DNA from: an uncultured virus (IMG/VR IMGVR_UViG_3300008255_000103) | Taxonomy: Duplodnaviria; Heunggongvirae; Uroviricota; Caudoviricetes | Virus record (IMG/VR): IMGVR_UViG_3300008255_000103 | Location: 1 to 64,000 of that record | DNA: 64,000 nucleotides | Strand: one strand, 5' to 3' | In this document: piece after piece, positions 2,345 to 45,487 of the stretch | Layout of the letters: every line of letters begins with the position of its first letter | Numbering within the stretch: position 1 is the first letter of the stretch | Position numbers and translations under genes: made by a program | Notes under the pieces: model-generated | Told to the model about the DNA's origin: nothing | What the model saw: only the letters and a program-made list of their open reading frames with translations | Databases searched by the model: none

Positions 2345-3048
2345 GATTTATTGTTTTTTATTCTAGATATAGTATCTCTATGTACACCAAATAATACCGC
2401 AATTTTTTTATTAGAAACACCCCGCGTAATAAGATATCTAATAATATTTACTTGTTCTTCAGTTAATTTAGCTGTAGCTAAACGATGTTCCTTACTTTTA
2501 GGAATACCTCTTTTAGATTGTGATATTTTATTGCAAAAATCTTGAGATCTTTTTCTGCCTTTTAATGGTGAGTTTTTATTTTGATTTGGATGTTTTCCTG
2601 GTTCATATTTATTGGTGAGAGATTTGGATATTTTTTCTTTTATATCTTCAGGTGTTGATTTACCTTTATTCCAAGGATCTTTTCCCAAATGCGCTTCAGA
2701 TATTTTACGTCTAGCCTCTTTAGACATTTTATGTCCAGAAGTTCCGTCACCACCATCAGTTAAATTGTATAGGCAGTATCCATCATTCTTTAATTTTAGA
2801 ATCCATTCTTGTTCAAGAGCAAATGCAATATTTTCTTCTACAATATCATCTACTATAGATGTTAATAAAAAATTATCATACCCATATTTATTTAAGGCAG
2901 CATGTAAATAATAATATGAATTTGGATATTTTGTTTTTCCACCTCTAGCGATTTTTAAGTGATCTCTAAATCTATCATGTAAATTTTTAGTTTTACCAAC
3001 ATAAATTTTACCATTTATTGTATTTATTAAAAAATATATGCAATACAT
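2332..3048 (-). CDS. GIY-YIG homing endonuclease with NUMOD3-like repeats and C-terminal HTH
   Basis: CIY...IYVGKT, R..DH, YNLTDGGDG, KISEAHLGK/KISQSKRG repeats, IAVLFGVHRDTISRIK HTH. Confidence 0.9.
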   Translation of the reverse strand: MYCIYFLINTINGKIYVGKTKNLHDRFRDHLKIARGGKTKYPNSYYYLHAALNKYGYDNFLLTSIVDDIVEENIAFALEQEWILKLKNDGYCLYNLTDGGDGTSGHKMSKEARRKISEAHLGKDPWNKGKSTPEDIKEKISKSLTNKYEPGKHPNQNKNSPLKGRKRSQDFCNKISQSKRGIPKSKEHRLATAKLTEEQVNIIRYLITRGVSNKKIAVLFGVHRDTISRIKNNKSWID

Positions 3049-3080: not shown

Positions 3081-3125
3081 AGCGCCATAATTATTTGATG
3101 CCGCATATAATATCTTTAATTTCAT
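3081..3125 (-). pseudogene. Orphaned 5' stub of the 1358..2344 glycosyltransferase
   Basis: ATG overlapping the exonuclease stop (ATGA) reads MKLKILYAASNNYGA versus GT N-terminus MDRLKILYACSNHTN. Confidence 0.7.
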
Positions 3126-3730
3126 CCAGTTACAGTAGTTTTCATAAAATCTAAAATATCTTTAAAGTATTTTACTTGTTTCATAAAGAGTTCTTTAGTG
3201 GCTTTAGTATCTGATGCGGCTGTATGAGCTTTATCATTTTTGATACCATACTTTTTGATAATAGTATTTAGATTATAGTAATTTTCAAAATCACCTTTAC
3301 AATAATCTAAAAATAGCTCAATAACCATTGTATCCATATAGCGTCTACCAAATGGATAAGTATCTTTTGAATTACATTTAATCCAAAGTTGTTCTAATCG
3401 TTCTAAGTCGAATGAAACATTATGACCGACACATAGCCTTTGTCCAGATGGAACGCCATCTTCCATCAACCAATTTTCTATATCAACGATAGCATTATTA
3501 GCATTTTTATAAAGCTCCCTGCCTTCCTTAGTCTCATGTCTTAAATCTTCTAATTTATGACCATTGATTCTAAGAGCTGCGGGTTCGTAGTTTTCGGGAT
3601 TCGTCGGTTGAATAAGCCATGTTTTTTGAGCGTCATCGTTTAATCTGTATAAAGATAATTCAATGACGTCATATTTATGAGAATCTAATCCTGTCGTTTC
3701 TGTGTCTAATACGTAAATGGTATAATCCAT
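3122..3730 (-). CDS. DEDDh 3'-5' exonuclease (DnaQ-like)
   Basis: Exo I LDTETTG, Exo II GHNVSFD, Exo III AHTAASD. Confidence 0.92.
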   Translation of the reverse strand: MDYTIYVLDTETTGLDSHKYDVIELSLYRLNDDAQKTWLIQPTNPENYEPAALRINGHKLEDLRHETKEGRELYKNANNAIVDIENWLMEDGVPSGQRLCVGHNVSFDLERLEQLWIKCNSKDTYPFGRRYMDTMVIELFLDYCKGDFENYYNLNTIIKKYGIKNDKAHTAASDTKATKELFMKQVKYFKDILDFMKTTVTG

Positions 3731-6114: not shown

Positions 6115-6642
6115 TCACACTTCCATTGTTTGAATTGGTAGGGTGTATGGTTTTATTCCTTGATATGATTGGTTATTTGCTTTTAATTGGTTATTAATGG
6201 TGTCAACTCTTTGCTGCATTGTTACACCTATTATTGATTTATAAAGAGAATCTAATGCAGTACTTATTGCAGGCTTTAAAGATTCAGGCTCAACATCTAA
6301 TGTAAAATAAACATTTTTATTTGCAAGATCAGCAGTTCCAGTTAAATTCATAGATACTGGCTCTCCTTGAGAATCATTTGCAGCTTTTGCAATTAAAATG
6401 CCTATTGGTCCTTCTCCCATAGTCTTAACATATGTTATTTTATCTTCAGGATTGTTACTTTGTTTATCTTGTTCTGTTACCTCCGCGCCTTTCCAAACCC
6501 TACCCATACTTTTAATAAATTGTTCTTGTTTGCCTGCGATATTGGTAAAAAATATAGTAGATGCTGATAGTTCTTGTGCATATTTTCTTAATTTTACTTC
6601 AAATTTACTAGCTAATTTAACTATTTTCCCCGAATATTTCAT
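6115..6642 (-). CDS. Hypothetical protein
   Basis: 175-aa ORF translationally coupled to the upstream gene; no recognisable motif. Confidence 0.6.
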   Translation of the reverse strand: MKYSGKIVKLASKFEVKLRKYAQELSASTIFFTNIAGKQEQFIKSMGRVWKGAEVTEQDKQSNNPEDKITYVKTMGEGPIGILIAKAANDSQGEPVSMNLTGTADLANKNVYFTLDVEPESLKPAISTALDSLYKSIIGVTMQQRVDTINNQLKANNQSYQGIKPYTLPIQTMEV

Positions 6643-7409
6643 TATGTTCCTCGTCTATTTTGCAAATCAGCAATTAATTTATTTCTTATTGTATCAGTAA
6701 CACTAGAATTATAAATATGCATTTCTGCTAATCTTAATTCACATGCATCACCAGTAGTTCCCCATCCACCAATTACAAATTTATCAAAATTACAATAATA
6801 ATAAGTTGAGCTGTAATCAGTGAAATCATAGCTCATTTCAACACCATCAACCCACATACGATGCGTACTTCCAGAAAATTCTACAACCAAATTATGTCTA
6901 TTTCCATCAGCAATAAGTGGAGTGCCATAACGCCTAACATAACGAGAACTCGTACTAAAACTATATTCACAACGAAATATATCAGTTTGTACAGTATATA
7001 TTTTTCTAGGCGCTAAATGTACTGGATAATTATTTCCTGTTCCAGCTGTAAATCCCCATGGCGTATCAGCTACTCCTGTGCTTAATATTTGAACTTTAGC
7101 AGTTATTAAAAAACTTTTTTTGTTTCCTGAAACGCGAGGACCCCAGCCATTAGCTTGTAAACTATGACCATTTATATGAATAGATGGTCCACTATCACCA
7201 CCCCATCCAGTAGGCTCATATGTAGCATTAGTGCTAAATTGAATTAAATCTTCAGTACCCTGTTCATCTGATACGCTAACAACAGTTGATCCACTAACAG
7301 TAGCATTTTCAGCAAACCAATGCGATTGAATAAATCCAGGCACAACATATGCAGGAGGCGGTGGTGCCGATGACTTTACAAAATTAATTATCATTTTACT
7401 CCAATACAA
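6642..7409 (-). CDS. Concanavalin A/LamG-like beta-sandwich protein, probable virion accessory
   Basis: [11 protein letters not shown]...MWVDG...FVIGG...LAEMHIYN pattern. Confidence 0.6.
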
Positions 7410-8619
7410 ATATTAAGTTAACAGTTAAATCGTAATTCAATGATGTATAAGAATATCCCGTATTTGATATATCAATACGATCGCCTGGAAGAATTTCCGT
7501 TCTTAATGGATTTACATTATTATTTAATGATTCATTATAATGACTTGTATTAAGTTCCATAGTTGATAGCAAAAAATCATTTCCATTTATTTGGATATTA
7601 ATTCTTGGATAATAAGAACTATTAGCATATACATTTTGAGATCTGATCTCACAATAAATTAATCTAGCTGTAGGACTTCCCCATCTTATTCCACTATACA
7701 TTCCTAAAAAGGCTGATAAAATGCCAGCATCAGCGCCTGTGTGTCCTGATTCTGCATAAGCACCAGCTATAAAAATTGGCAAGAAGACTGTTCTAGTTGC
7801 TTGAGCATAATACACTTCAATTATATCACCAGCAACAGTACTTAAACTTGGTCCAGATACTTTAATACCCATGTCTCCAGGTGTATCATAATAATTCACA
7901 ACAATATACCATTTAAAAAATTCTACAGTAAATGTTTCAGTACCAAGTGGAGCGCTATTTACTCTTAATGTCCCAGTAATACCACTACCATTATCCCCAA
8001 GTATAGTTATATCCATGCCACCAGTATAACTAAATTCTTCTGCATATAAAATTCTATTCGTTAATGCCGAATCATTATAACCGTCTAACATATATGTTGA
8101 TCCAAGATTAACATATTTGAAATATATTTTTCCAGATTGGTCTAATAAACTGCCCGCTAATCCAACCAATGTATTATAACTATAAGAAATTCCAAAAGAA
8201 GTAGATGATGTAACGCCTTGTTTATCTAATACTCTTACAGCTATATTTTCTCTTAAATTGCGGCTTTGATTAGTTAATATAGTTAAATAATCAATATCTA
8301 TAGCAGTAGTTTCAAAATCAGTATTGGCAATTAAAGGATTCCATTCAGGAGCACCAGTTGGACCAGCAGGACCAACAACCCCTGAATCTCCAGTAGCCCC
8401 AGTAGCCCCAGTAGCCCCAGTCGGACCTGTATCTCCATCAACACCATTAGTTCCTGCCGCCCCTGTAGCACCTGTTGGTCCTGTATCACCAGATAAACCT
8501 CTTTCACCTCTTGGTCCTTGGGTTCCAGTCGAACCAGTAGCTCCAGTCGCTCCCCCTGCACTTGGAGTTACAGATGGAATACTTGTATTGTCATCAAAAT
8601 CATATGGGTATTTTGTCAT
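7396..8619 (-). CDS. Collagen-like (Gly-X-Y) fibre protein
   Basis: ~22 GXY triplets after the N-terminal [10 protein letters not shown], followed by a globular C-terminus. Confidence 0.8.
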
Positions 8620-8651
8620 GTTAGTTACCTAAGATGCATTCTCTATTAGAG

Positions 8652-8672
8652 TATACTAAACTTTTAGTATAT
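8652..8672. promoter_or_regulatory. Palindromic site / probable bidirectional phage promoter between divergent fibre genes
   Basis: TATACTAAA-CT-TTTAGTATA; reads ATACTAA-N7-GTATA on both strands, the motif also found upstream of other genes. Confidence 0.6.
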
Positions 8673-8687
8673 TTACGAGGTTCTTAT

Positions 8688-9662
8688 ATGACAACCACCT
8701 ATCCAGCAGCATTAGACACTAATACAACTTTACCTAAAGTTACCGATAATTTAACTCCAGTTTCTGGATCTGTATATAATCGTTTACAAGAGGCAGTTAT
8801 TAGAGTAGAATATGAATTAGGCGTTAAACCTAGCGGAACTTATTCAACCGTTCGAGCAAGATTAGATGCACTTGAAGGTATTCTTGCAAAACTAAATCTA
8901 AACCTTCAATTTGGTGGAGATATCGAAGCTCAAACAGATCCTACTATTCAACATGTCATCGGTATTAGAGGCGAGACAATTTTAAATAATTTGTCAAAAT
9001 CAGTTGGAGGATCATTAAGATGGGATGGTAGTTATTGGAATCAGGTACAATTATATATGGACGATATATTACCTCCATTTTATGTAGAAATGAATGGACC
9101 TCCAATGCAAGAAGTAAATCAATGGCTATCATATCCTACATTTTATGGCACATATAATTTTGAACCTCCCACTTCTATTACATTAACCGATACTGAAGGA
9201 CACTCACAAATAATACCAATAGTTGATAGGGCTTTATTTTATAGTGATTATGAATTTCAAAAAACAGCATTTGATGGATACGTAACTTTTACATTAACAG
9301 CAGAACATCATCAAATAGAAAAAAGCTTTGACTATACAGTATACTGGGGACAAAAACTTTTTTGGGGTGTTGGTCCTGCTGGTTATACTACAGCATCTGA
9401 TATTACAACCAATTTAGATGGTTACGTTACAAATAGTATTGCTTATAATTTTACTGCAACTGCAGGAGCATCTGAAAAAATCTATTTTGCATGTAGAACA
9501 GCATATGGCGCAGCAACTTTTTATGTTGGGGGATTTGAAGGTGGGTTTACTTTAGTTAGCGATACAATCTCCATAACAAATGATTATGGATTTACTGAAA
9601 ATTATGCGCTTTATGAAAGTGATAATCTTGGATTAGGTACTACCACCGTTACAGTGAGCTAA
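8688..9662 (+). CDS. Probable virion structural/fibre-associated protein
   Basis: GAGG RBS before ATG 8688; N-terminal YPAALD...[13 protein letters not shown] segment shared in part with 22901..24703. Confidence 0.65.
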
Positions 9663-9670: not shown

Positions 9671-10876
9671 ATGACATCTAGATATTTAACTTGGACGGGA
9701 TCAGACTGGGGCTTAGCTGAAAGCGGTGGCGGCGGTGGCGGAACTGGTACAATTGGACCTATTGGTCCTGCTGGTCCTACTGGAGCTACTGGTGCTACTG
9801 GAGCTACTGGAGCCGCTGGAGATACAGGCGCAACTGGAGCCACTGGTGCTACTGGCGCTACTGGAGCTGCTGGTAGTATAGGATCAACAGGCGCTAGAGG
9901 TCCTACCGGAAATACTGGACCAACCGGACCAACCGGACCAATTGTAGAACATAATTTATTAACATCAATACAAGGCGGTTCTGTAGCAGATGGATATTAT
10001 CATTTAACTAATAGTGAACATGGCTGGTTAACAGATGGATATGTAGATGGATATTGGAATGTAGATAAAGGAGCAATTGGAATAACTGTTTATAATCCTG
10101 GAGATATAATTTATGCTAGTGCAGAAGATATATTAAGTAAAATATCTATTGGCAATGAAGGCGAAACATTAATATCATCAGCAGGATTTCCAGTATGGGG
10201 ATTTCCTACTCATAGTTTATTATCATCATTAGAGGGCGGTTCTGGAATTGATGGTTATTATCATTTAACCAACAATGAACACACTTGGTTAACAGCAGGT
10301 TATACTGCTGGTAAATGGGCTGAAAATAAAGGTGGAACAAACCAAACCACATATACTATTGGTGATTTATTATATGCCAGTGCATCTAATACATTAAGTA
10401 AATTATCAGCATCAATAGATGGTTATATTCTTAAACTAGCATCTGGAATTCCTTCATGGGATATCCATACAAATACATTAACTCAAGTAACTGTTGGAAA
10501 AGATGGTTATATTACACCTGCTTCTGATGGATATCTAACATCTAAGTTTACAGAAGTTAATACAGAAGGATTCCCAGCATATGTGGCTAATACAACCTGC
10601 TACATTAAAAATTTTACAATTACAATGAGTGATGTAATGTTAGCAGGACAAACAGTAGTTATTACAATAAGAAAAAACAATGTGGATACTATACTTACAT
10701 TAACATTAGATAATGCAACTCCTTTGAATTCTGCGGTAACATTGCGAATAGAACAGGATATTACAAATTCTGTATCATTAGTTAATGGTGATAAAGTAAC
10801 GGTTAAATATGTAGCATCTGGCACGGCTGATGCTCAAGATATTTTTGTTACTTTTGATATATTGAAGACAGTATAA
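9671..10876 (+). CDS. Collagen-like fibre protein with duplicated ~88-aa module
   Basis: GXT triplets; two Hx[17 protein letters not shown] repeats; 7 DGY. Confidence 0.8.
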
Positions 10877-10889: not shown

Positions 10890-11450
10890 ATGCCAATCAA
10901 TCTAATCTCTAAAATAAAGTCAAAAAATGATGGGTCATTTCCTACTATTGAAGATGTAGATATATATGGCGGTTATCAAGTACGTAGTGATATTGCTGAT
11001 CGTAATAGTATTCCTTCTTTAAATAGAAAAGAAGGAATGATGGTTTTTGTACAAGATGATAGCAAATATTATACTTTAAGTGGAGGCTTAACTGATGGAT
11101 ATTGGACAGAAATATCTTTTGGTGGCGGAAGCTCTATGGCATATGTATTAATAGAAGATGAAGATAGATTAGTTGAATCTGGAGTAAGTGAATTAATCGT
11201 ATCGGCTAATACTGATTCTGTAACAAGGACTATTACATTACCAGCTACGCCTACTGATGGTCAAGAAATAATAATAATACGTCAGGCAGAATATGCTAAT
11301 GGCACGCTTATTATTGATCTAAATGATTCGTTAATAGATTATATAATATCAAGTTGGGGATTTAATTCTTTTACTGATTCAGAATTACATTTGATATATT
11401 ATGGAGATGTATGGTTACATATCTATAGCAGAACTGAGTCTTATGGCTAA
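10890..11450 (+). CDS. Paralogue 1 of tandem modular adhesin-like family
   Basis: Conserved MPINLISK...GGYQVRS...LNRKEGM...KYYTL domain, Gly linker, variable C-terminus. Confidence 0.7.
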   Translation: MPINLISKIKSKNDGSFPTIEDVDIYGGYQVRSDIADRNSIPSLNRKEGMMVFVQDDSKYYTLSGGLTDGYWTEISFGGGSSMAYVLIEDEDRLVESGVSELIVSANTDSVTRTITLPATPTDGQEIIIIRQAEYANGTLIIDLNDSLIDYIISSWGFNSFTDSELHLIYYGDVWLHIYSRTESYG

Positions 11451-11465
11451 TATGTGGAGATTTAA

Positions 11466-12083
11466 ATGCCTATAAATATAATTTCATTATTGAAACCTAA
11501 AAATGATGGCGAATTTCCCATTGCTGAGGATGTTGATGGATATGGTGGATATCAGGTAAGATCAGATATTACAGATAGAAATCTTATACCAGAGTTAAAC
11601 AGAATAGAGGGTATGTTAGTATATGTTCAATCAGATGCTAAATACTATACTTTATCTGGAGGAATAACTAATTCTGATTGGATAGAAGTAACTTTAGGGG
11701 GCGGTTCTACAACCACAAGAGAGATTGTTGTTTTAACTGAACCAACTACATATAATGTTCCCTCTGGAGTAAATCAATTTATTATTAATACATATGTACC
11801 AACTCTGGATGATCCTAGTGGAGTAGTAACTACAGTTGCACTACCTAGTGATCCAACAGATTTGCAAGAAATTATAGTTAAAACTACAAATGCTTCTGGA
11901 AAAAATTATTGGGTTATTGATGTTAATGGTGGAATCAATAATATTGACAATGGTAATGCTGATTTTGGAAGCCCATCTAATTCTTATCCATGGATTATAT
12001 ATAGTAATTATTGTTTAAAAATAAGGTGGACGGGATCAATATGGAGTGTTATCACATTTACATCTCTCACTATTCCAAAGTAA
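11466..12083 (+). CDS. Paralogue 2 of tandem modular adhesin-like family
   Basis: Same N-terminal domain as 10890 and 12097. Confidence 0.7.
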   Translation: MPINIISLLKPKNDGEFPIAEDVDGYGGYQVRSDITDRNLIPELNRIEGMLVYVQSDAKYYTLSGGITNSDWIEVTLGGGSTTTREIVVLTEPTTYNVPSGVNQFIINTYVPTLDDPSGVVTTVALPSDPTDLQEIIVKTTNASGKNYWVIDVNGGINNIDNGNADFGSPSNSYPWIIYSNYCLKIRWTGSIWSVITFTSLTIPK

Positions 12084-12096
12084 AATAGGACATTAA

Positions 12097-12678
12097 ATGC
12101 CAATCAATATAATATCTAAAATAAAGCCCAAAAATGATGGTTTGTTTCCTACATTTGAAGATCGAGATATATTTGGTGGTTATCAAGTACGTAGTAATTC
12201 TACTGATCGCAATAATATACCAGCTTTAAATAGAAAAGAAGGCATGTTAGTTTACACACAAGATGATGATAAATATTATACTTTAAATGGTGGGCTAACT
12301 GATGGATATTGGACAGAAGTAGTATTTGGTGGCGGTGGTGGATCAGATTTTACATTAGTTCATACAGGTATAAGTTATCAAATAGTTGATACAACAAATC
12401 AGTTTATATCTGTAGAATCATTTTTAGGATTTGCTTTAACAATAACATTACCTTTAAATCCTGCTAATGGTCAAGAAGTCATTGTAAAAGATACTGATGG
12501 TGTTTGTAGTTCATTTTCTGAAATATCAATTGAAATATATGGTAATGGACATGATATAATTATTCCTTTTGAATATCGTTATTTGTGGAATGCATATGAA
12601 TGCATTCATATTAAATATAATAGTACATTAGATTTGTGGGGATTAGTAAGTGATTGGTATCCTATTATACAATCATAA
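12097..12678 (+). CDS. Paralogue 3 of tandem modular adhesin-like family
   Basis: Same N-terminal domain; stop overlaps the convergent GT stop (TCATAA). Confidence 0.7.
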   Translation: MPINIISKIKPKNDGLFPTFEDRDIFGGYQVRSNSTDRNNIPALNRKEGMLVYTQDDDKYYTLNGGLTDGYWTEVVFGGGGGSDFTLVHTGISYQIVDTTNQFISVESFLGFALTITLPLNPANGQEVIVKDTDGVCSSFSEISIEIYGNGHDIIIPFEYRYLWNAYECIHIKYNSTLDLWGLVSDWYPIIQS

Positions 12679-13749
12679 TTCACAAAATTGTAGATTGTCT
12701 AATATTCTACTTTTTTCATTATCTGGCAACATACCACTCTTTAATAATGCATTATTTAAAGTAGCTGCTTCTTGTTTTTTACCAATCCAATAAGCAGCAA
12801 CAGCTAATTCATCTATAATCTTCCAATCATAACAAGCCGTTTCTAAAAACAAAGCGTCCTTAGGTTTAGCTATATTACATCCAATCTTAGCATAAAAATA
12901 TGACTTATGAAGTCTATCAAATCTTCTACAATATGAACACAAATAAGACAACGCCTCAACTCTATTTGGTTGATAATTAAAAGCTTCTAGATAAGCGGAT
13001 TCAATTCTTAATGCATCATGAGTATATAATGATTCATGTAGCTTGGCTGCCTCTAATAATGATACATATATCTCTTCTATCCAGCCACCCATTTTACTGC
13101 GCTGTAGATACAATTTTAAAGATTCTTCCTTCTTTCCGGCGTCCCTGTAGCTCTGCGCCGCGTAGAAGACATAGCGGGAGTTATTTGGCTCGACAATCAA
13201 TGCTTTATCGAACGTCATGGCATCCTTAAGATACTTTTGAGGATCATTAGATCGAGACCCGTTAGCTCCAAATATAATCTTACATCCAACCAATGGTTTT
13301 GATACAATATTTATTGGCAATTCTAAATATTCATGTAGAACACCAACATATTTAGATTTTAATTTACTACTAAATAATTGAGTTCTACTATATACAATTG
13401 GACCGTGATTAAACTCGATAGTATAAGCTGATTTTGTGAGGTTTTTAAATACATTGATATTATTTACAGCCAAATAGTCATCAGCATCCATAACTAATAT
13501 ATAATCTGCTTTTGGCTTTGCTAATTGTAATGCTTTATTTCTATTGGTAGAGAAGTCTTCCCATTCATGTTTATGAAGTTCACCGGGGATGTCTTTTAAA
13601 CATTTTTGGATTACTTCTTCTGTGTTGTCTGTAGAGCCTGTGTCGCATATAATCCAATAGTCAATAAAAGGCTTAACAGAATTGAGGCACCTTTCAATAC
13701 AGTGTGCCTCATTCTTAACAATCATAGATAAACATACCGTCATGTACAC
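12673..13749 (-). CDS. Family 2 glycosyltransferase with C-terminal TPR-like helices
   Basis: CLSMIVKNEA, DTGSTD, DFSTNRN, MDADD (DxD), GVLHE, then helical TPR-like region. Confidence 0.9.
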   Translation of the reverse strand: MYMTVCLSMIVKNEAHCIERCLNSVKPFIDYWIICDTGSTDNTEEVIQKCLKDIPGELHKHEWEDFSTNRNKALQLAKPKADYILVMDADDYLAVNNINVFKNLTKSAYTIEFNHGPIVYSRTQLFSSKLKSKYVGVLHEYLELPINIVSKPLVGCKIIFGANGSRSNDPQKYLKDAMTFDKALIVEPNNSRYVFYAAQSYRDAGKKEESLKLYLQRSKMGGWIEEIYVSLLEAAKLHESLYTHDALRIESAYLEAFNYQPNRVEALSYLCSYCRRFDRLHKSYFYAKIGCNIAKPKDALFLETACYDWKIIDELAVAAYWIGKKQEAATLNNALLKSGMLPDNEKSRILDNLQFCEL

Positions 13750-13763: not shown

Positions 13764-14066
13764 TTATTCTTCCCACACACCAATAATAGTAATTCCTTCT
13801 ACTGGATCTCCGCTAGGCGGTATTGGGCTTGGAGATCCAGTAGACGTCCATATTTCATAACTTAAAGTTACTGTATTCCAAGCTCTCATACGATAATGAT
13901 ATTGTGTTCCAATTGGTACAGCATAGAATTTCCAATTACCTTTTGCTCCAACATATTTAGTTCCGCTTGCAAATGGATCAGTAGGTATTGCCAATCCACC
14001 TCTAACTAAAGAGTAGTTTTCGCTATAAAAAGGTAACGAAAAATAATATCCATCTTCAGAAACCAT
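13764..14066 (-). CDS. Small probable virion protein
   Basis: Likely start MVSEDGYY (TAATG overlap); YRMRAWNT resembles YYMRAYNT at the N-terminus of 15027..17474. Confidence 0.6.
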   Translation of the reverse strand: MVSEDGYYFSLPFYSENYSLVRGGLAIPTDPFASGTKYVGAKGNWKFYAVPIGTQYHYRMRAWNTVTLSYEIWTSTGSPSPIPPSGDPVEGITIIGVWEE

Positions 14067-15022
14067 TATGCAGTCTCCGGTGCAGTTCCATTCCAAGGAA
14101 ATATTATATGTCCAAATTGAACAAATTGATATGATAAATCAGCAGGAAATGCAGTACCAACAGCTACTGCTGTACTTCCCCACCATAAATCATATATAGA
14201 ACCTTTTCTTCCTCTATGAGTTCCCACTGTATTAAGAAGACCCATTGGCATAATTGGCCATTCTCCAGTATCATCATCTTGAGAAATTAAATATTCTCCA
14301 ACCATTGATGTTAAAGCACCTTCACAAGTAACATACATTCCTATTAAATCTCCAGAGACCTCTCCATATATAGTTGCTGTATCATTCCACCAAGCATATT
14401 GTGTCGCATTTGCATCGCCGGCGCGTGCGCCCCAAATACCAGTGGTAAAACCAGTAGTTGGACTACTCGGCATATCAAATAACCAAAATAATTGGCATAC
14501 ATTTGCTACTGTTGTTAATATGCGAGTACATTCACCATCACTAGAGTGCATCACATGAAGTTTACCGGTATATACTGACGAATGAACAAAAGCTGCTGAA
14601 TATACTTGGTGTTGGTCTCCTGCTGTTGGGGGTGATGCAGCAACACCATCTGTACCTGTACCACCAGAACCTATGGCTCCAAACTCACCATTTGGAGATA
14701 CTATAATACGAACATAATTTGTTTGTGTATTATTGTACATATAAAAACAAACTTGCATACTGGTAACTAAATTTTCTAATACAATCCATCGATTACCAGT
14801 ACCTATTGCTGTAGTATCTGTCCAACGGTCAACACCATCATTATTTCCAACAAAATTTCCAGTAGCACTACTACCCCATACTACCCATGGATTAAGTACG
14901 AAATTTTTCATACTATTTTTAATGGCAAGTATTATATTTCGTCCGGTATCGGTAGCTGCTGATCCACTAAATAATTGATTAACATCATATTGCCAAGTTT
15001 TTACTTTTGGAGGTAAAGCCAT
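14066..15022 (-). CDS. Probable virion structural protein
   Basis: G/T/W-rich beta-type composition inside the fibre cluster. Confidence 0.55.
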   Translation of the reverse strand: MALPPKVKTWQYDVNQLFSGSAATDTGRNIILAIKNSMKNFVLNPWVVWGSSATGNFVGNNDGVDRWTDTTAIGTGNRWIVLENLVTSMQVCFYMYNNTQTNYVRIIVSPNGEFGAIGSGGTGTDGVAASPPTAGDQHQVYSAAFVHSSVYTGKLHVMHSSDGECTRILTTVANVCQLFWLFDMPSSPTTGFTTGIWGARAGDANATQYAWWNDTATIYGEVSGDLIGMYVTCEGALTSMVGEYLISQDDDTGEWPIMPMGLLNTVGTHRGRKGSIYDLWWGSTAVAVGTAFPADLSYQFVQFGHIIFPWNGTAPETA

Positions 15023-15026
15023 TTTA

Positions 15027-17474
15027 TTATCCTTCTATTATTATTTGTGCTGACTTACATGTTACAATATTCCCACCACCAGAATTTGCAATCCATAAAC
15101 GAACTTCAAAAACTCCAACCACAGTTCCGGCAAAAGCAGCAGTAATATCTGTTTCAATCATACTTGGTATTAATTGACTGGATGCACCAGTATTATCAAT
15201 TTGTGACCCAGATACTTGAGCAGTTCCACTAATATCATATAAATCTGCTGTTGCTGCATAAGTTGCAGTAGCATTTGTTGATTCTAATATACAACGAAAT
15301 TTTACCGTTCTAGTTGTTGGCCATTGCGATGTATCAACATAACAAGCGCCAATTGCAGTAGCAATTCCTGTAGAATCTGTAGCCAATCCCTTCAATAAAT
15401 CCATTTCAATTGGGAAATTGCTACCGCTTGCAACATTTGGAATCCAAGCGGGGACTCCAGATGCTAAAGCTAATACATAGCCATCATCTGATGCTGGTAA
15501 TGCTGCTAAAATATTAGTATTGGAAGCATATAATATATCTCCAACATTATAAGATGTTAATCCCGTTCCACCTTGAGCTGTGTGCCAATAACCATCTAAA
15601 TAATTATCACTAAGGGCATTTAACATAGCTGCTGTAACATAGCCATCAACATGTGAGCCATCAATAGCGAAATTATTTGCGGAAGTAACAGAACCGCCAG
15701 GTAAATCTATATATGCACCATTCTCAGCCTTTAAGTAAGGCTCGGCACCCATTAGATTAACATATAGTTTCTGAAGACCATCAAAATAAATATGTTCAGC
15801 TTGGTTATTATTATCAAATACTATATTATCATAACCATCAGTTCCAATCAGATGAATATCATTACTATTAGCTGCATTTCTAGCACTTAATGCAGTTAAA
15901 TTATTTGGGACTCTTAATACACCAGATTGTGCGGGTGCAAGTCCAATATCAAAATAAGCGCCATTAATATCTACATTAAAATTTCCATATGATACTAATC
16001 CATATTGAAATACTATCGCTCCGCTTTGATTACTTGGAATTCCAGCACCAGATGATAGATATAAATTTCCACCATAACCAGAAGATAATGAACTTCCAGC
16101 AATTATTGATAATACGCCACCATAGCCAACACTAGCATTACCAGCATATATTGATAACGCTCCACCGTTACCAATATTTACAGAATCTCCTGCGGCTATA
16201 TTAAAAGAACCACCATCAGCCCCAATACCATTAGCATCTTGTGCATTAATTGTTAATAGTTGCCCTGAACCAGATGTTTGTAATACTTGTGAAATAACGG
16301 GGGTTACAGTATCTTTATCAAAAGTTAGATTAGATGTATAAAATAATGTGCTAGTATCAAGTATGTGTATCTTAGGGTTAATGCCATTTTTAATTTGAAC
16401 ATAACCATCAGCAGTAGTTCCGCTTCCAGATCCAAGAATTAATGCTCCGCCAGTAGATCCACCAAAAGATGAAGTTTGCGCCAGTATTGTTAATGTTTGA
16501 CCATTTCCAGTAGCCTGTGTTGTTTGGAAAATACTTGGATTATTTACATCTTCATGAAATCTAACAAAACTTAGTCCAACTTCTAATTGTGGAATATCAT
16601 TTACTTCGAAGGAATGAATATATCCATCTCCGACATTGTGAGTAATACCTTCATTGGATAAATCACCAATAAGAATAAGATCTCCAAGAGTTTCTATTAG
16701 ATTAAGGTTTCCAGAATCAAGATCATTTCTTACATGAATTCCTTCTGTATTTTGTAATCTAATAAATCCAGTAGTTGACGCGCCTGTTAATCCATGAGAT
16801 ATACTATCTTCAACTAACAAATCATTAGCAATATACACCGAAGTAGTATTAGATCCTAATTGAACTCTATCAAATATATCTACTTGAAGAATATCTACAT
16901 CTCCAGTATTTGTAGCATTTCTACCTCTAACAACAGCATCTTCTGTAGCAACATTTGGAATACGAATAATGCCAGATTGCGCAGGATATGTTCCTAATGC
17001 CAAATACCCATCAATAGATAATGTTCCAGTAAAAATAGGTAAAGAAGCGCCAATAGTATAACCATCTCCACCAGTATTATATGCAAATTTCCAACCAGAA
17101 AGAGTTTCATCCCAAAACATACAAGAATGATCTCTAGGGATAAGACCTGTAGTATATCCTCTAACAGCGGCTAAACCTGTAATTTGTGGCGGAACATCTT
17201 GCGTTGTCGCATATGGCGAAGTTGGTGGATGTATCCAGTCATAACTATTTAAATGGAAAAAATAACCATCACTAGAATTAAGTGGTTTTAAAAAATTATC
17301 TATTTTAGATTGAACTATTCTATTAACTATTATATTTTCAAGATTAATAGAACTATAGCCGTCAGGACAATATATTGCATTTGAATCTGGTTGATCGTTA
17401 ACAATCCAATCAACGTAACCAACAGCACCTGGCGCTGCTGTATTATAAGCTCTCATGTAATATTGTATTGGCAT
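15027..17474 (-). CDS. Long tail fibre/spike-like protein
   Basis: GGxLxIxAG glycine-rich repeats, GGTG-x-Y-x-GDILYAS module; 10 DGY. Confidence 0.7.
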   Translation of the reverse strand: MPIQYYMRAYNTAAPGAVGYVDWIVNDQPDSNAIYCPDGYSSINLENIIVNRIVQSKIDNFLKPLNSSDGYFFHLNSYDWIHPPTSPYATTQDVPPQITGLAAVRGYTTGLIPRDHSCMFWDETLSGWKFAYNTGGDGYTIGASLPIFTGTLSIDGYLALGTYPAQSGIIRIPNVATEDAVVRGRNATNTGDVDILQVDIFDRVQLGSNTTSVYIANDLLVEDSISHGLTGASTTGFIRLQNTEGIHVRNDLDSGNLNLIETLGDLILIGDLSNEGITHNVGDGYIHSFEVNDIPQLEVGLSFVRFHEDVNNPSIFQTTQATGNGQTLTILAQTSSFGGSTGGALILGSGSGTTADGYVQIKNGINPKIHILDTSTLFYTSNLTFDKDTVTPVISQVLQTSGSGQLLTINAQDANGIGADGGSFNIAAGDSVNIGNGGALSIYAGNASVGYGGVLSIIAGSSLSSGYGGNLYLSSGAGIPSNQSGAIVFQYGLVSYGNFNVDINGAYFDIGLAPAQSGVLRVPNNLTALSARNAANSNDIHLIGTDGYDNIVFDNNNQAEHIYFDGLQKLYVNLMGAEPYLKAENGAYIDLPGGSVTSANNFAIDGSHVDGYVTAAMLNALSDNYLDGYWHTAQGGTGLTSYNVGDILYASNTNILAALPASDDGYVLALASGVPAWIPNVASGSNFPIEMDLLKGLATDSTGIATAIGACYVDTSQWPTTRTVKFRCILESTNATATYAATADLYDISGTAQVSGSQIDNTGASSQLIPSMIETDITAAFAGTVVGVFEVRLWIANSGGGNIVTCKSAQIIIEG

Positions 17475-17531: not shown

Positions 17532-18224
17532 TTAGATAGCGATTACATGAATTGTTACAACTGCTGTTCTAACTTCAGCATTATCGTATGTTACAGTTAC
17601 AGTTAAATCATATGATCCACCATTTAAACTAACAAAACCATCACCTTCCCAAGTATCACCAGTTTGTGTATATAATTGAGAATCTCCACCATCTAAATTA
17701 CCAGAAAATAACACAACATGTTCACCACTTTCAATAGTTCCATAAGCATAAAAAGGAGCGGTTGGATTATACGATGGAGATTCGTCTGTGGGATCAGTTA
17801 TTGTAATTCCCATCAAATATGTAAACCCAGTATTCTCTACTTGGTAAATTGTACTAAATGTTGAAAGCCTAAATGTATCTGTGCTCGTTTGATTCGCCAC
17901 AAATACAACATCATATCCATCAGTCGATATGCTAATTGTCATTTCCGTCAATATACCAGAAGCGTTATAAATAGAACCATACCCGTCCAAACCAAGTCCA
18001 CCAGCAATATAAGCATTTCCAATTTCTCTTACAACTAAAGCGTCCAACCAATAAGAATATCCATCAGAAGCTGTTGATTGATTTTGAATAAAACATAACG
18101 TATTAATTCTTGTATCTGTATTTGCCGGAACAGTAAACCTACAGACTTCAACACCATGTGTCGAGGTCACAACCGTTCCTGTAATTAATCTTCCATTTTG
18201 TATTGCATATCCATCATTAGGCAT
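17532..18224 (-). CDS. Fibre-associated protein: shared N-terminal domain plus Ig-like C-terminus
   Basis: N-terminus homologous to 18237 and 20717; C-terminal GSYDLTVTVTY Ig-like strand; 4 DGY. Confidence 0.6.
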   Translation of the reverse strand: MPNDGYAIQNGRLITGTVVTSTHGVEVCRFTVPANTDTRINTLCFIQNQSTASDGYSYWLDALVVREIGNAYIAGGLGLDGYGSIYNASGILTEMTISISTDGYDVVFVANQTSTDTFRLSTFSTIYQVENTGFTYLMGITITDPTDESPSYNPTAPFYAYGTIESGEHVVLFSGNLDGGDSQLYTQTGDTWEGDGFVSLNGGSYDLTVTVTYDNAEVRTAVVTIHVIAI

Positions 18225-18236: not shown

Positions 18237-20705
18237 TCAGGGTGGAGTGTCTTTTATAATATCAGCTTCTTCCATATTTGTCATTGTTCCGTTGAAGCCA
18301 ACCCCATCTCCCATCTTCCAATATCCTACAAGGTTTGCTGAACTCGTTAAGTCTGTTGGTATTCCTGCGTTGTATATTGCTTCAACTTCTGATAAGGAAA
18401 GAACTTTATCCCAAATTGATATGTCTTTTAAATTTCCAATCCAATAATTTTGATTATCAGGTCTTCTTCCAATATTAAAATTAGCCGCATTGGATATTGA
18501 TAATGTTAAAGTATCGTGTCCTACGGTTGCTGGAACTAAAACTCCATTCATATAGAATATAACACCAGCTCCTGTTTTGCTTCCATCATAAGTAACAACA
18601 CCATGTCTCCAAACACTATCTCTGTAACTTCCAAATCCTGTTGTTGTATTTGTAAAAATATAATTGTTTCCCGCCCCAGCGTCATTTATTAAGTATACTT
18701 GAATTCTATGTAAAGAATCAATAAATATAAAATACCCAGTGTATGTAGTACTACCTAAATTTTTTGCTATAATATTAGTATTTGTTCCACCTGTACATTT
18801 GAACCAAAAGGACCAAGAACGAGTTTCCGTTCCGTTTAAATCATGAACATCTCCCATGTCAATAAATTCGTCGGAGCCATCAAATACCATAGAGTTTCCA
18901 ATATATGTTCTTGACTCAACGTCAGTGATTTCCATATTGACCTGAGTTCCATGCAGTCCGTTGCCCGAGAAGTCAGGAACTCCATTTGCTGCAAGACTAT
19001 AATTTTCTCCACACCTCCACCAAGCCGCAAGATTAGCTGCGCAAGATGTTGTAGTTAAATCAATCGGAACCTTATTGTTATAAATTTCTGTTACTTCAGT
19101 TGGAGAAAGCTCTTTATCCCATACCGATACGTCAGAAAGAGAACCTTTATACCATAAATCATTATGATTTCTTGCCCCTAACCTAAAATCACTGGCATTT
19201 GCTGCTGTTGCCGATAACGTATCATAATTTGTAGTTGTTGCAACTGGAGCATTATCTATATAAAAAACAACACCTGCTGCTTTTCCTGTAGAATCTTTTG
19301 TTATCATACAATAATGCCAATTATTATCATTGTATGAATTATTAGTTTGTATTTCAAGAGTATTTGTAAAATATGTATTTATTTGAAAAAAAGCTATTTT
19401 ATTAGTATTCGTACAAAGTATTTGATATCCGGGGGCGCCAGCCGCTACACTAATTTTTGATACAAAAATCCCAGTATGTGTGATTGACCATTTAAACCAA
19501 AAACTAATAGAAAAAGCATCGTTATAATCAAAATCTAATATATCTCCCATATTTACATATTCGTTTGTTCCACCAAACACTAAAGCTTGACTTCCAGGAC
19601 TCGCAAACTGAATATCAGAAACTTCCATGTTAGTTGCTGTTCCATCATATCCATTTGTTGATTCATCAGGAATTACAGGAAACTGATAATCTGAACTATG
19701 ATCTAAAATAGTTGGATATGTATCTCCATCTCCACATCTCCAATAAGCTACCATATTAGAGGCTGATGAAAGGTTCTTTATGTTAGTTGGAATCCCTGAA
19801 TTATAAATAGCTTCAACTTCAGAAAGAGAAAGCTCTTTATTATATATAGATGCTTCATCTATGTTACCAATCATATAATCAAGAGTTCCATTCATAGAAC
19901 CAATGGTGCAAGGCATCGTATCTTGAATAGTTGATGTTAAATTATTAATATTTGTAACAGGAGCTTCATATCCCCCGTCAACATAAAAAGCCGTTCCAGA
20001 AACATTACTACTTCCATCATAAGTAGCAACAATATGATGCCAATTTCCATCATTCAAAATAGAAGATGTGCTTACTGATAACTGACTTGTATTTGCTACG
20101 CTTACAATATCAAATCTAATTGATCCAATAACTCCCCCAAGTCCTTCTTTTTTCAAACCCCATCCTCTATAATTTCCAGCTGGACCTTCCTTACCAATAA
20201 AAAAATTCCAAGGGTTTACATCCGATGTTTTAAACCAACAACTAATACTAAAAGCATCAGTCCTCTCAAAACTTAACACATTTCCCATTGTTACAAATTC
20301 ATTAGTTCCACCAAACAACAAAGAATATCCATCAATAAATTGTTCAACAGAATAAATTTCCATCGAACATGCTACTCTATATATATTCCCATCCGCCGAA
20401 GCTGTTGTGGCATAAATATTATCATTCGTAACAGCTAAAATTACTTCAAAACCTGATGTTGTTCCTTCTTCATTATACTTAGATACATCTCCAACAATCG
20501 TTGCATATCCATCTTGATTATATACATTTGCTGCTAATTTATAAGAACTGCTTATTTGTCCGTTTACTTTTTGAAATAAACATGTTGCTTCTACCCTTGC
20601 AAAAGTTTCCAGTGGAACCGCCCAAGAGCATACATTTACTCCATTAGCTGCCGTTGCAACTGTTCCGGTAGTTTTAATTCCTTGTATTAATTGTCCATCA
20701 GCCAT
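18237..20705 (-). CDS. Protein with three LamG/concanavalin A-like domains (putative receptor/glycan binding)
   Basis: Three repeats of FGGTNE.V.MG...FSIS.WFK...WHH.V.TYDGS...GNIDE.SIYNKELS. Confidence 0.85.
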   Translation of the reverse strand: MADGQLIQGIKTTGTVATAANGVNVCSWAVPLETFARVEATCLFQKVNGQISSSYKLAANVYNQDGYATIVGDVSKYNEEGTTSGFEVILAVTNDNIYATTASADGNIYRVACSMEIYSVEQFIDGYSLLFGGTNEFVTMGNVLSFERTDAFSISCWFKTSDVNPWNFFIGKEGPAGNYRGWGLKKEGLGGVIGSIRFDIVSVANTSQLSVSTSSILNDGNWHHIVATYDGSSNVSGTAFYVDGGYEAPVTNINNLTSTIQDTMPCTIGSMNGTLDYMIGNIDEASIYNKELSLSEVEAIYNSGIPTNIKNLSSASNMVAYWRCGDGDTYPTILDHSSDYQFPVIPDESTNGYDGTATNMEVSDIQFASPGSQALVFGGTNEYVNMGDILDFDYNDAFSISFWFKWSITHTGIFVSKISVAAGAPGYQILCTNTNKIAFFQINTYFTNTLEIQTNNSYNDNNWHYCMITKDSTGKAAGVVFYIDNAPVATTTNYDTLSATAANASDFRLGARNHNDLWYKGSLSDVSVWDKELSPTEVTEIYNNKVPIDLTTTSCAANLAAWWRCGENYSLAANGVPDFSGNGLHGTQVNMEITDVESRTYIGNSMVFDGSDEFIDMGDVHDLNGTETRSWSFWFKCTGGTNTNIIAKNLGSTTYTGYFIFIDSLHRIQVYLINDAGAGNNYIFTNTTTGFGSYRDSVWRHGVVTYDGSKTGAGVIFYMNGVLVPATVGHDTLTLSISNAANFNIGRRPDNQNYWIGNLKDISIWDKVLSLSEVEAIYNAGIPTDLTSSANLVGYWKMGDGVGFNGTMTNMEEADIIKDTPP

Positions 20706-20716: not shown

Positions 20717-21793
20717 TTACGGAGGTGCATCAGCAATTATATCTCCAGATTCCATATTAGTCATTGTTCCATTGAAACCAGAATCACTATGATCTAAAAT
20801 AGTTGGATAAGTGTCTCCATCTCCACATCTCCAATAAGCTACCATATTTGAAGCAGATGAAAGATTTTTTAGATTAGTTGGAATCCCTGAATTATAAATC
20901 GCTTCAACCTCAGGAAGAGAAAGTTCTTTATTGTATACTGATGTTTCGTCTATGTTGCCTTCAAATGCATAACCAGTGCCATCCCATTGACCAATTCTAA
21001 ATGGAGCAGTTGTAATAATAGAGCCTGTTAAAGTATTTTTCCATATTGTAAGGTCAACAATTTCACCATCAATATAAATATGCATGCCAGATACAAGTGA
21101 TGATCCATCATAGGTACATATACAATGATGCCAATTACCATTATTTATTGTTGCTGTAGTTGTAAAAACCTGAAACTCATTAGTTGATGATGTATTTGAT
21201 AATAAGAAAGTAATAGCTCCAGTATAAGTACCACCATTGAGATATACAGCATAGCCTGCATATGGTGCCGTGCCAGAATTTTTAGCAATAAGAAACTTAT
21301 CATTTGTAGTTGTTTTACACCACAAACTTATAGAAAAAGCATCAGTTCTCTCAAAATTCAACACATTTCCCATATTCACATATTCGTTCGTTCCTCCAAA
21401 CAGCAAAGAATAATAGTTCCCAAATTGTTCAACAACATAAATTTCCATAAAACATGTAACTCTATATTCTTCTCCATCTGTTGTTGCCGTTATAACTGAT
21501 AACGTAGATCCACTTGCAAATAATGTTACAGTCATTGCAACAGAACTCTCTTCCGTATTTACAACAGTCGGTCCTGAAACAATTGAAACATCCGCATCGT
21601 CTCTTCTAACAGTCGCTATTAATTTATATGAACTTTTAGCCGTATTATCGTAAACTTGTTGAACAGTACAATGAACTTCAACCCTTGCAGTAGTATTTAT
21701 TGGAATACTCCATACACAAACCTCAACACCATTTGAAGATGTTTGTATACTTCCTGCTGTTTTTCTTCCTAAAATTATATCTCCATCAGCCAT
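20717..21793 (-). CDS. Single-LamG paralogue of 18237..20705
   Basis: Shared N-terminal domain, one LamG domain, near-identical GFNGTMTNME tail. Confidence 0.85.
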   Translation of the reverse strand: MADGDIILGRKTAGSIQTSSNGVEVCVWSIPINTTARVEVHCTVQQVYDNTAKSSYKLIATVRRDDADVSIVSGPTVVNTEESSVAMTVTLFASGSTLSVITATTDGEEYRVTCFMEIYVVEQFGNYYSLLFGGTNEYVNMGNVLNFERTDAFSISLWCKTTTNDKFLIAKNSGTAPYAGYAVYLNGGTYTGAITFLLSNTSSTNEFQVFTTTATINNGNWHHCICTYDGSSLVSGMHIYIDGEIVDLTIWKNTLTGSIITTAPFRIGQWDGTGYAFEGNIDETSVYNKELSLPEVEAIYNSGIPTNLKNLSSASNMVAYWRCGDGDTYPTILDHSDSGFNGTMTNMESGDIIADAPP

Positions 21794-24789: not shown

Positions 24790-25344
24790 TTAAAATACTA
24801 AATATACTCCTAAAGATGTTGATGATAAAACTTTAACAGTGGCAGCATAATTAGTAGTAAGTAATCCATCTCCAGAAATTTGAATTTCTACTAATCCAGA
24901 CCCTAAATGACTAATACTAAATGTATATGGGCTTATAGATGTACTAGGATATGATGTAATAACATTAGAATAAAAATTTCCAGAATAATAAGTAGCAGTA
25001 AATACCATTTGAAAAGCAAATCTTTCATCAAAACTATTTTGAATTGCAGTAACAGTTATTGAGTTGGTAGTATTTGCATCTAATTGAATTTGTATTGCTG
25101 GAGAGAATGATATTGGATAAGTATCAACTCCAGTTTCATATGAAGCATAATATACTGTCTCTTCATAAGGCGCTCCAGCGGGACCTGTGGCTCCTGTATC
25201 TCCAGCGGGACCTGTGGCTCCTACGGAACCTGTAGCACCAACCGCACCAGTAGGTCCAGTGGCTCCAGTTTCCACTTCAATTACCGGAACAAGAACATAT
25301 TTTATTCCATCCCATTTAAGATAGCCAGGCTCAGGTAAACTCAT
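24790..25344 (-). CDS. Short collagen-like fibre protein
   Basis: GYLKWDG N-terminus, ~10 GXY triplets. Confidence 0.75.
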   Translation of the reverse strand: MSLPEPGYLKWDGIKYVLVPVIEVETGATGPTGAVGATGSVGATGPAGDTGATGPAGAPYEETVYYASYETGVDTYPISFSPAIQIQLDANTTNSITVTAIQNSFDERFAFQMVFTATYYSGNFYSNVITSYPSTSISPYTFSISHLGSGLVEIQISGDGLLTTNYAATVKVLSSTSLGVYLVF

Positions 25345-45382: not shown

Positions 45383-45430
45383 GATAACCTTAGAGGTATA
45401 TAATTCCTGTACACCTCCACCTATACCAAA

Positions 45431-45487
45431 TCATTTCATCCATTTATTTACAAAAATATCTCTGGCTGATTTATACAATTGGTAACT
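45431..45487 (-). pseudogene. Orphaned 3' stub of the 46427..47113 glycosyltransferase
   Basis: Reads SYQLYKSARDIFVNKWMK* versus GT C-terminus TYKLYKNARSIFIKKWEK. Confidence 0.72.

Follow-up and report, generated by a model that had tools for sequence, protein, structure and literature searches.

One DGY in each of three tandem phage paralogues: probably shared history and a lineage-favoured tripeptide rather than compensation

Background

The DNA analysed here, called the window throughout, is the first 64 kb (64,000 nucleotides) of a 138,879-base record of an uncultured huge phage (IMG/VR IMGVR_UViG_3300008255_000103), and the question it raises concerns three tandem genes between positions 10,890 and 12,678. 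Their products, which we call paralogues 1, 2 and 3, contain exactly one Asp-Gly-Tyr (DGY) tripeptide each, at residues 69, 24 and 69, respectively. Two sites are thus involved: at site A (residues 24–26) the sequence contexts in paralogues 1, 2 and 3 are DVDIYGGY, DVDGYGGY and DRDIFGGY, and at site B (residues 69–71) they are LTDGYW, ITNSDW and LTDGYW. An earlier note described these sequences correctly in every literal respect and read them as compensatory turnover, in which the presence of the motif is conserved while its position is not, as would be typical of a modification or docking site. Does the family indeed keep one DGY per protein, or has the pattern another origin? Judged from the sequences of the homologues, the compensatory one-per-protein interpretation is wrong. 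We consider it rather probable that the paralogues arose by tandem duplication and are short fibre or adaptor proteins that form homotrimers, and that their DGY pattern reflects history and not compensation, combined with a tripeptide that this phage lineage favours at turns.

Results and discussion

The three paralogues and their common module

In the alignment of the three paralogues the mean column identity is 64%, and nearly all of the conservation lies in residues 1–80. Over the first 246 nucleotides paralogues 1 and 3 are 81% identical, whereas each of them shares only 68–69% with paralogue 2; the site-B DGY of paralogues 1 and 3 is therefore one state by descent and not two observations. 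The conserved part corresponds to a module of ~80 amino acids (aa), over which all three paralogues match the PHROG families 23630, 25379, 24134 and 10485 (E = 7.8e-10 to 6.2e-4); family 25379 is labelled as tail protein and family 24134 as virion structural protein. Our own module profile matches the window at 10890–11132 (E = 4.1e-47), 11466–11708 (E = 3e-48) and 12097–12339 (E = 6.3e-47).

Census of DGY among homologues

A word-indexed search with paralogue 2 returned 7 proteins of similar length, and a profile of the first 82 residues (profile A2) returned 93 longer proteins. Compared with 1.84 billion representative sequences, the same profile matched 4391 proteins at E <= 1e-3, 972 at E <= 1e-10 and 30 at E <= 1e-30. 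Our census rests on 194 distinct proteins, obtained by combining the 93 profile matches with the best 150 of the 4391, a sample that includes the three proteins of the window and is biased to their nearest relatives. Together these proteins hold 295 copies of the module, with a single copy in 144 of them and two to nine copies in the other 50. In 123 of the 144 single-copy proteins the module stands at the extreme N-terminus (it starts at most 12 residues from it, with both sites aligned) and is followed by a variable C-terminal part; these 123 modules are the set in which the two sites were compared.

The claim that a count of one is conserved while the site shifts does not survive this comparison: 78 of the 123 modules carry no DGY, 36 carry one and 9 carry two. 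The same holds for entire proteins, since among the 43 short homologues (<=300 aa) from outside the window 24 have no DGY, 9 have one, 7 have two, 2 have three and 1 has four. With respect to the two sites, DGY is found at both in one module, at A only in 25, at B only in 6 and at neither in 91, the last being the combination that, if common, would refute the idea according to the earlier note. Compensatory loss and gain fare no better, as the sites show no association, negative or otherwise (Fisher p = 1), and one homologue, P0002, carries DGY at both; independent-pairs tests on the tree likewise gave no trend, these tests being without power. Site A is the commonest place for DGY in the family (26 of 123 modules), the family consensus at site B is NSD/NSN/NGD, and further DGY occur in the module at columns 14–16 and 57–59. 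Since 24 of the 26 carriers of the site-A DGY come from sources other than the window and the related locus L008, this DGY is probably older than the lineage of paralogue 2 and no fresh, compensating gain.

History of the two sites

We calculated a tree from the 123 modules, leaving out the trait columns; it is poorly resolved, with 17 of 119 inner branches strongly supported. In this tree P0002 is the neighbour of paralogue 2, P0004 that of paralogue 3, and P0010 and P0016 are those of paralogue 1, and the C-terminal domains pair in the same way as the modules. P0002 and P0004 are encoded next to each other on L008 (114–695 and 697–1254), followed by the same GT2 glycosyltransferase gene that adjoins the paralogues in the window. 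The duplication is thus older than the split of the two phages, because the adjacent genes of L008 pair with paralogues 2 and 3. The site-B DGY is nearly confined to the clade of paralogues 1 and 3, to which 6 of its 7 carriers among the 123 modules belong.

P0002, which of the proteins from outside the window is closest to paralogue 2, contains three DGY (residues 24, 69 and 80). Its nucleotide identity to paralogue 2 is 87% over codons 1–35 and 73% over codons 36–75, whereas its identity to its own neighbour P0004 is 67% and 85% over the same two segments (Fisher p = 0.0016 and 0.02, values that are indicative only, the split point having been picked after inspection). This mosaic suggests that P0002 probably gained its site-B DGY by gene conversion from the neighbouring paralogue. 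On the weak tree, the DGY positions at the four module turns need at least 9, 3, 11 and 5 changes. Paralogue 2 would keep the commonest arrangement of the family, with DGY at site A and N-x-D at site B, and paralogues 1 and 3 would carry the rarer DGY at site B that is specific to their clade. This reading does without any compensating event.

Excess of DGY in the phage and its relatives

Tripeptides in the window were counted in 53 hand-picked open reading frames (ORFs) of at least 100 aa. This set leaves out nested or antisense ORFs (6398–6700, 8324–8632, 22360–22833, 27758–28159, 40885–41256, 45051–45485 and 62034–62390), the small ORFs 32690–32995 and 35763–36083, and an open-ended duplicate of 61355–63847. 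DGY is the most over-represented tripeptide of the set, with 59 occurrences compared with 4.8 expected from composition and 12.4 expected from dipeptides. In the whole record (117 automatic ORFs, 44,622 aa) we found 89 DGY where 9.8 are expected, and 88 of the ORFs have none; each of the five other permutations of D, G and Y occurs only 5–12 times. The DGY are densest at 9671–10876, 15027–17474, 17532–18224 and 22901–24703. In the window the ratio of DGY to DGF is 59:4, and NGY occurs 3 times. Beyond the window, the minus-strand ORF at G000:C1:100060-100428 encodes 122 aa with 5 DGY; four of these belong to consecutive repeats of five residues, each made of DGY and two further residues.

The relatives show the same preference. 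For the 191 non-window proteins of the census we counted the 80,479 aa that lie outside the module; here too DGY ranks first among the tripeptides (157 occurrences, 19.5 or 35.0 expected), and the ratio of DGY to DGF is 157:18 though Tyr and Phe are equally frequent there. At least one such DGY is present in 57 of the 136 proteins that have at least 200 aa outside the module, and three or more in 23. For the related loci the numbers of observed and expected DGY are 10 and 0.98 (L004), 8 and 0.65 (L005), 10 and 0.60 (L008), 2 and 0.32 (L006), and 1 and 0.37 (L007). Modules attached to DGY-bearing proteins also carry DGY themselves more often than the others (29 of 51 compared with 14 of 58, Fisher p = 0.0008, uncorrected for relatedness). 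Among 28 of the 133 homologues found for the collagen-like fibre protein encoded at 9671–10876, 16 have 2–9 DGY and 12 have none, and at the DGY columns the tripeptide alternates with NGQ, VGQ, DGS and others. On the other hand, T4 gp34–38 contain no DGY in 3091 aa (0.58 expected), and five tail proteins of Cellulophaga phage phi18:1 contain none in 2671 aa (0.72 expected). The DGY excess is real, and it is lineage-specific.

Several simpler sources of the excess were considered and rejected. A motif at the nucleotide level is not supported, as all 59 matches to GAYGGNTAY lie in the coding frame and use varied codons. The DGY are not copies of one repeat unit either, for the flanks of 88 DGY sites are heterogeneous and share no extended motif. 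Local richness in D, G and Y is at variance with the low counts of the permutations, and a general property of fibres with the absence of DGY from the T4 and phi18:1 proteins, which are two controls only. In the literature searched, which comprised open-access papers only, we found no description of a DGY motif in phage fibres.

Since DGY is ~9–12 times over composition in the structural proteins of this phage, one DGY in a fibre protein of ~190 aa is unremarkable. The regularity of exactly one DGY per protein, true for the three paralogues, thus amounts to no more than descent plus background. What holds of the earlier note beyond its sequence statements is that DGY occurs non-randomly and is bound to no single place, as the motif appears at four turns of the module; the compensation between positions falls away. 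Any explanation of the excess has to respect three constraints: the count per protein is not conserved, a recurrent site lies in a modelled subunit interface (see below), and the motif can spread between tandem paralogues by gene conversion.

Predicted fold and trimer

Paralogue 2 was modelled with AlphaFold2 from an alignment of 56 of the 194 sequences; the model has a mean predicted local distance difference test score (pLDDT) of 81.7 and comprises two domains. The score is lower for residues 1–29 (62–76 by block) and high for residues 30–75 (91–97). In structure comparisons, the C-terminal part of the model resembles the KP1 baseplate chain 9f4a_LS (model residues 77–203; Z 11.3, root-mean-square deviation (rmsd) 2.3, 103 residues aligned), residues 79–180 of the CBA120 tailspike TSP4 (7rej_B; 84–201; Z 10.9, rmsd 2.3, 95 aligned), T4 gp9 (1qex_A; 87–201; Z 8.5, rmsd 2.6, 90 aligned), the T4 baseplate chain 5iv5_AC (87–203; Z 8.5, rmsd 2.7, 95 aligned), CpaA (6o38_A; 79–199; Z 8.2, rmsd 2.8, 87 aligned) and StcE (4dny; 79–197; Z 6.6, rmsd 3.1, 89 aligned). 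As modelled, the C-terminal domain is an XD1-type beta-sandwich like that in the N-terminal region of TSP4. The N-terminal core (model residues 28–88) matches the trimerisation domain of collagen XV (3n3f_B; Z 6.3, rmsd 3.4, 53 aligned), at a Z level where a common arrangement alone can explain the likeness.

The prediction with three copies of paralogue 2 reached an interface score (ipSAE) of 0.85 (median of 3 runs), compared with 0.00 for the best of three controls; at least 79% of the contacts were common to the runs, and the partner pLDDT was at least 76. When the score was calibrated, 20 of 30 proteins with structures solved as pairs attained this mark, compared with 1 of 23 whose structures were of single chains; the calibration holds only roughly here, given the custom alignment and the three copies. 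The models thus suggest that the paralogues form homotrimers, presumably also in vivo.

In the model of the single chain, D24 of site A ends a short turn, and G25 and Y26 are in coil before the strand 30–32; site B forms a short turn (69–71) just before the strand 72–75, which opens with an invariant Trp. In the trimer model, residues 24–26 lie against residues 10, 11 and 18 of a neighbouring chain, the expected error being small, and residues 65–74 are outside the listed interface of every copy, which is no proof that they are free. The two sites are in different environments, since only site A belongs to the modelled interface. According to the model, at least one of the two sites is therefore probably no open docking surface.

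According to the TSP4 study (PMC8825819), the ~80 residues that precede XD1 in TSP4 are taken as a baseplate anchor, XD1 itself is called a spacer, and the XD1 fold binds glycans in CpaA and StcE.

Why DGY

Following our preferred explanation, each of the three proteins would consist of a conserved N-terminal arm (residues 1–29), a small trimerisation core (~30–80), a Gly-rich linker and a diverged C-terminal XD1-type sandwich. The arm and the core would together form a module that many phages have at the head of otherwise unrelated fibre and spike proteins and that may fix the trimer to the tail, and the diverged sandwiches would provide three alternative distal surfaces, either glycan-binding or partner-binding. 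DGY would appear at several turns of the module because the phage lineage favours this tripeptide throughout its fibre proteins. The most likely reason is structural, to go by the models: the Asp-Gly pair would make a tight turn, with Tyr at the beginning of the following beta-strand or beside it. In the model of paralogue 2, module columns 57–59 form a hairpin loop in which the Tyr position opens the strand 59–63. In the model of the fibre protein 9671–10876, Tyr is the first strand residue in 3 of 7 DGY, Asp opens a strand in one, and one DGY is at a strand end.

A number of points weigh against this explanation. Only 5 of the 11 modelled DGY have their Tyr at or next to the start of a strand, which is suggestive; two others are in low-confidence coil, and site A and column 14 lie in turn or coil of the N-terminal arm. 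The preference for Tyr over Phe, seen both in the window and in the relatives (59:4 and 157:18), goes beyond a simple rule of a turn followed by a hydrophobic residue. NGY is the other classic tight-turn start; it is rare (3 in the window), so that Asp is favoured over Asn, and this too agrees poorly with a simple turn rule. No extended motif emerges around the 88 DGY sites, and the two fibre controls have no DGY, so that the excess is lineage-specific and not a general property of fibres. All 7 members of the immediate clade of the paralogues carry at least one DGY in the module, which is what a one-per-protein requirement predicts at that depth. XD1 of TSP4 is regarded as a spacer, with no function as a binding surface (PMC8825819), so that binding is only one possible role of the terminal XD1-like domain.

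The preferences for Tyr and Asp and the restriction to one lineage, which fit a turn rule poorly, leave room for the idea that DGY is a mark which something reads. In its general form this idea takes DGY as an undescribed mark, independent of position and with no fixed dose, that the outer virion proteins (tail and fibre proteins) of this huge-phage clade would carry and whose tyrosine hydroxyl would be read by a phage-encoded enzyme that modifies it, by a factor of virion assembly or by a molecule of the host surface. On this view, paralogue 2 on the one hand and paralogues 1 and 3 on the other would represent two instances in which the module took up the mark, each time at a turn that permits it. 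We regard the idea as unlikely, but it would agree with much of the sequence evidence: the dependence of the excess on residue order (89 DGY, 9.8 expected, 5–12 of each permutation), the top rank of DGY both in the window proteome and outside the module in the 191 proteins of relatives, its confinement to fibre-like proteins (88 of 117 ORFs without DGY), the 59 nucleotide matches that are all in frame and vary in their codons, the strong preference for Tyr over Phe, the repeated appearance at four module positions, the tendency of the module to follow the DGY-richness of the attached protein, and the glycosyltransferase genes nearby. It agrees less well with the models, in which site A is buried in the trimer interface and the jelly-roll head of the fibre 9671–10876 has some of its DGY within beta-strands; in near homologues of this fibre many DGY columns are conserved in position (9–11 of 28 at three columns), as a structural residue would be, and for the adjacent GT2 enzyme the collagen-like repeats, rich in Thr, are a candidate target that suggests itself more readily. 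An improbable alternative is that the DGY are small sugar-binding patches for weak multivalent adhesion to host polysaccharide, with the Asp carboxylate and the Tyr ring contacting the glycan. The confinement of the excess to fibre and outer tail proteins would suit such patches, Tyr instead of Phe would allow hydrogen bonding plus stacking, and the XD1 fold serves for glycan binding in CpaA and StcE according to the TSP4 study (PMC8825819); yet site A is in the modelled subunit interface, and the contexts of DGY are too varied to define a pocket.

Most improbable of all is the proposal from which we started, that each paralogue must keep one DGY as a modification or docking site and that loss at LTDGYW was offset by gain at DVDGYGGY. 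It accounts for the three proteins of the window and, as said, for the immediate clade, but at the level of the family it is refuted by the census, with its majority of modules without DGY, its modules with two, its 91 modules with DGY at neither site and its lack of a negative association. Even among the nearest relatives P0002 has 3 DGY and P0010 has 2, most carriers of the site-A DGY come from other sources than the window and L008, and the placement of site A, and not of site B, in the modelled interface means that the two are not interchangeable surfaces.

Distribution of the N-terminal module

In other proteins the C-terminal parts that come after the module are pectate-lyase-like, beta-helix, YadA-head or DUF5907 domains. 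In some long proteins (P0095–P0100 and others) the core of the module (~residues 30–75) is matched repeatedly, by 2 to 15 stretches per protein, so that it appears to serve as a repeated shaft unit as well. Among cultured phages, the module is present in 27 records of Cellulophaga, Erwinia, Pseudomonas, Tenacibaculum, Yersinia, Salmonella and Flavobacterium phages. In gp61 of Cellulophaga phage phi18:1 it is at the N-terminus, with 44% identity over 75 residues. The gp61 gene follows closely on those for the tape measure and the distal tail, and in the record its product is annotated as a tail protein with the remark "experimental MS/MS proteomics". By homology to this protein, the module proteins of the window may be present in the virion.

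Pfam has no model of the module. At E <= 0.1 we found no Pfam family for the three paralogues except a sub-threshold match of paralogue 1 to StcE_b-sandwich (E = 0.02), and in a Pfam scan of the 56 members of alignment A3 no family covered the module, five unrelated families being hit in one member each. The only match in a sequence search of the PDB, a dehydrogenase (E = 0.11), was rejected as chance, and the Atlas leads Mtd_N (28% of one cluster) and DUF2793 were not confirmed by the Pfam scans. We thus describe a very widespread and uncurated N-terminal module of fibres and spikes (4391 representative clusters), which should aid the annotation of receptor-binding proteins of uncultured huge phages.

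Gene neighbourhood

The record has a CheckV completeness of 32% and a GC content of ~31%; in the protein database the same proteins are assigned to a contig of 444 kb. Among the neighbouring genes are those for collagen-like tail fibres, a ribonucleotide reductase, PhoH, a DnaB-type helicase and an endolysin, together with a weak match to the tubulin PhuZ (40152–41507, minus strand, E = 2e-8). A DNA similarity search against 50,697 phage records gave matches to collagen repeats only, covering 3% of the query, and a scan of viral contigs gave only 4 related loci; a metagenome scan yielded a piece of 5.5 kb rather than the contig of 12.9 kb. The features closest to the paralogues are listed in Table 1.

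Table 1. Coordinates of the paralogues, their two sites and the adjoining genes (window positions unless a related locus is named)
Feature	Position	Strand	Description
Upstream gene	8634..9662	+	342 aa, without family match
Relative of upstream gene, L004	3706-4731
Relative of upstream gene, L005	4866-5990
Relative of upstream gene, L006	5390-5995
Relative of upstream gene, L007	5103-5981
Collagen-like (G-X-T) fibre protein with jelly-roll C-terminal head	9671..10876	+	Pfam Collagen match; 7 DGY; structure model
Paralogue 1	10890..11450	+	186 aa; module 1-81, Gly-rich linker, predicted XD1-like C-terminal beta-sandwich; site A DIY, site B DGY
Site A codons, paralogue 1	10959-10967	+	GAT ATA TAT
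Site B codons, paralogue 1	11094-11102	+	GAT GGA TAT
Paralogue 2 (P0001)	11466..12083	+	205 aa; same architecture; site A DGY, site B NSD
Site A codons, paralogue 2	11535-11543	+	GAT GGA TAT
Site B codons, paralogue 2	11670-11678	+	AAT TCT GAT
Paralogue 3 (P0009)	12097..12678	+	193 aa; same architecture; site A DIF, site B DGY
Site A codons, paralogue 3	12166-12174	+	GAT ATA TTT
Site B codons, paralogue 3	12301-12309	+	GAT GGA TAT
GT2 glycosyltransferase	12673..13749	-	Pfam Glycos_transf_2 E=3.6e-13; PHROG 13126

A relative of the upstream gene is found directly 5' of a module-bearing gene in all 4 viral loci L004–L007, and in P0006 the C-terminal part of its product is fused behind the N-terminal module. 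This protein may be a partner of the module proteins or an alternative distal domain. The jelly-roll head of the collagen-like fibre protein that follows it resembles, as a predicted structure, C1q/TNF, phage fibre tips and the C-terminal domain of BclA, with middling Z-scores (7.6–9.2).

The GT2 gene, which besides its Glycos_transf_2 domain has only a TPR_17 match under the curated cut-off (E = 0.037), keeps its position beside the paralogues in L004 and L008 (77% and 74% identity in tblastn). In L004, relatives of the GT2 gene and of 14066–15022 are found downstream, and the place of the three short proteins is taken by one module protein of 634 aa; L008 has the GT2 gene after the paralogues, as in the window. 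Collagen-like fibre genes with Thr-rich G-X-T repeats are located at 9671–10876 (plus strand) and at 7396–8619, 21808–22896 and 24790–25344 (minus strand). The presence of the GT2 gene beside such genes raises the possibility that it glycosylates their repeats. BclA is a glycosylated protein, and by analogy with it the Thr-rich G-X-T repeats would be a more conventional candidate target of the GT2 enzyme than DGY. For this reason the proximity of the GT2 gene is no specific support for DGY as a mark. Other glycosyltransferase genes of the phage are located at 46427–47113 and 47428–48555.

Two further genes on the minus strand, 18237–20705 and 20717–21793, encode proteins in which between one and three domains are of the concanavalin/LamG type (Pfam Laminin_G_3, E = 7e-58 and 5e-22), and relatives of these proteins adjoin the same GT2 gene on L008. 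Three very large ORFs (50098–54144, 54192–61355 and 61355–63847, minus strand; 1348, 2387 and 830 aa) contain 5, 7 and 1 DGY, respectively, and have no PHROG match at E <= 1e-5. The window also contains two GIY-YIG homing-endonuclease genes (2332–3048 and 41877–42611, minus strand). One of them adjoins a short ORF similar to DNA-polymerase exonucleases (3122–3730, minus strand), which may point to a split polymerase.

Comparison with known systems

If DGY were a mark, the closest parallel would be sequon-directed glycosylation, of which the O-glycosylation motif of Bacteroidota, D-(S/T)-(A/I/L/V/M/T), and the glycosylation of mycobacteriophage virions are examples. The likeness consists in a three-residue, position-free, Asp-first motif on surface proteins and in the phage's own glycosyltransferases encoded beside its virion genes. 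DGY differs from the Bacteroidota motif in having Gly-Tyr in place of Ser/Thr and an aliphatic residue, and a further difference is that the number of DGY varies from protein to protein.

The core of the module has the size of the small NC1 trimerisation unit of the multiplexin collagens XV and XVIII (3N3F, 3HSH), and residues 28–88 of the model cover chain residues 2–54 (of 53). The Z-score is middling and the sequence identity is 17%, so that we claim no evolutionary link; a further likeness is that the phage also encodes several collagen-like fibres.

In architecture the paralogues resemble the N-terminal region of CBA120 TSP4 (AD and XD1; PDB 7REJ, 7RFO and 7RFV) as well as T4 gp9 and gp10, in all of which a short N-terminal anchor precedes a beta-sandwich of ~100 aa around a common threefold axis. 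They share no detectable sequence similarity with these proteins (no Pfam family and no PDB sequence match). Unlike the corresponding part of TSP4, the predicted module is not a triple-stranded beta-helix, its core resembling instead the trimerisation unit of collagen XV/XVIII (Z ~6), and the paralogues end after XD1, without the docking domains XD2 and XD3 or a catalytic body.

The closest relatives in terms of sequence are the members of PHROG 23630, 25379, 24134 and 10485, including gp61 of phi18:1, which have the N-terminal module of ~80 aa in common with the paralogues. gp61 differs in its length (356 aa), in its C-terminal part and in the absence of DGY, whereas the window has three short tandem copies, each with its own predicted XD1-like end.

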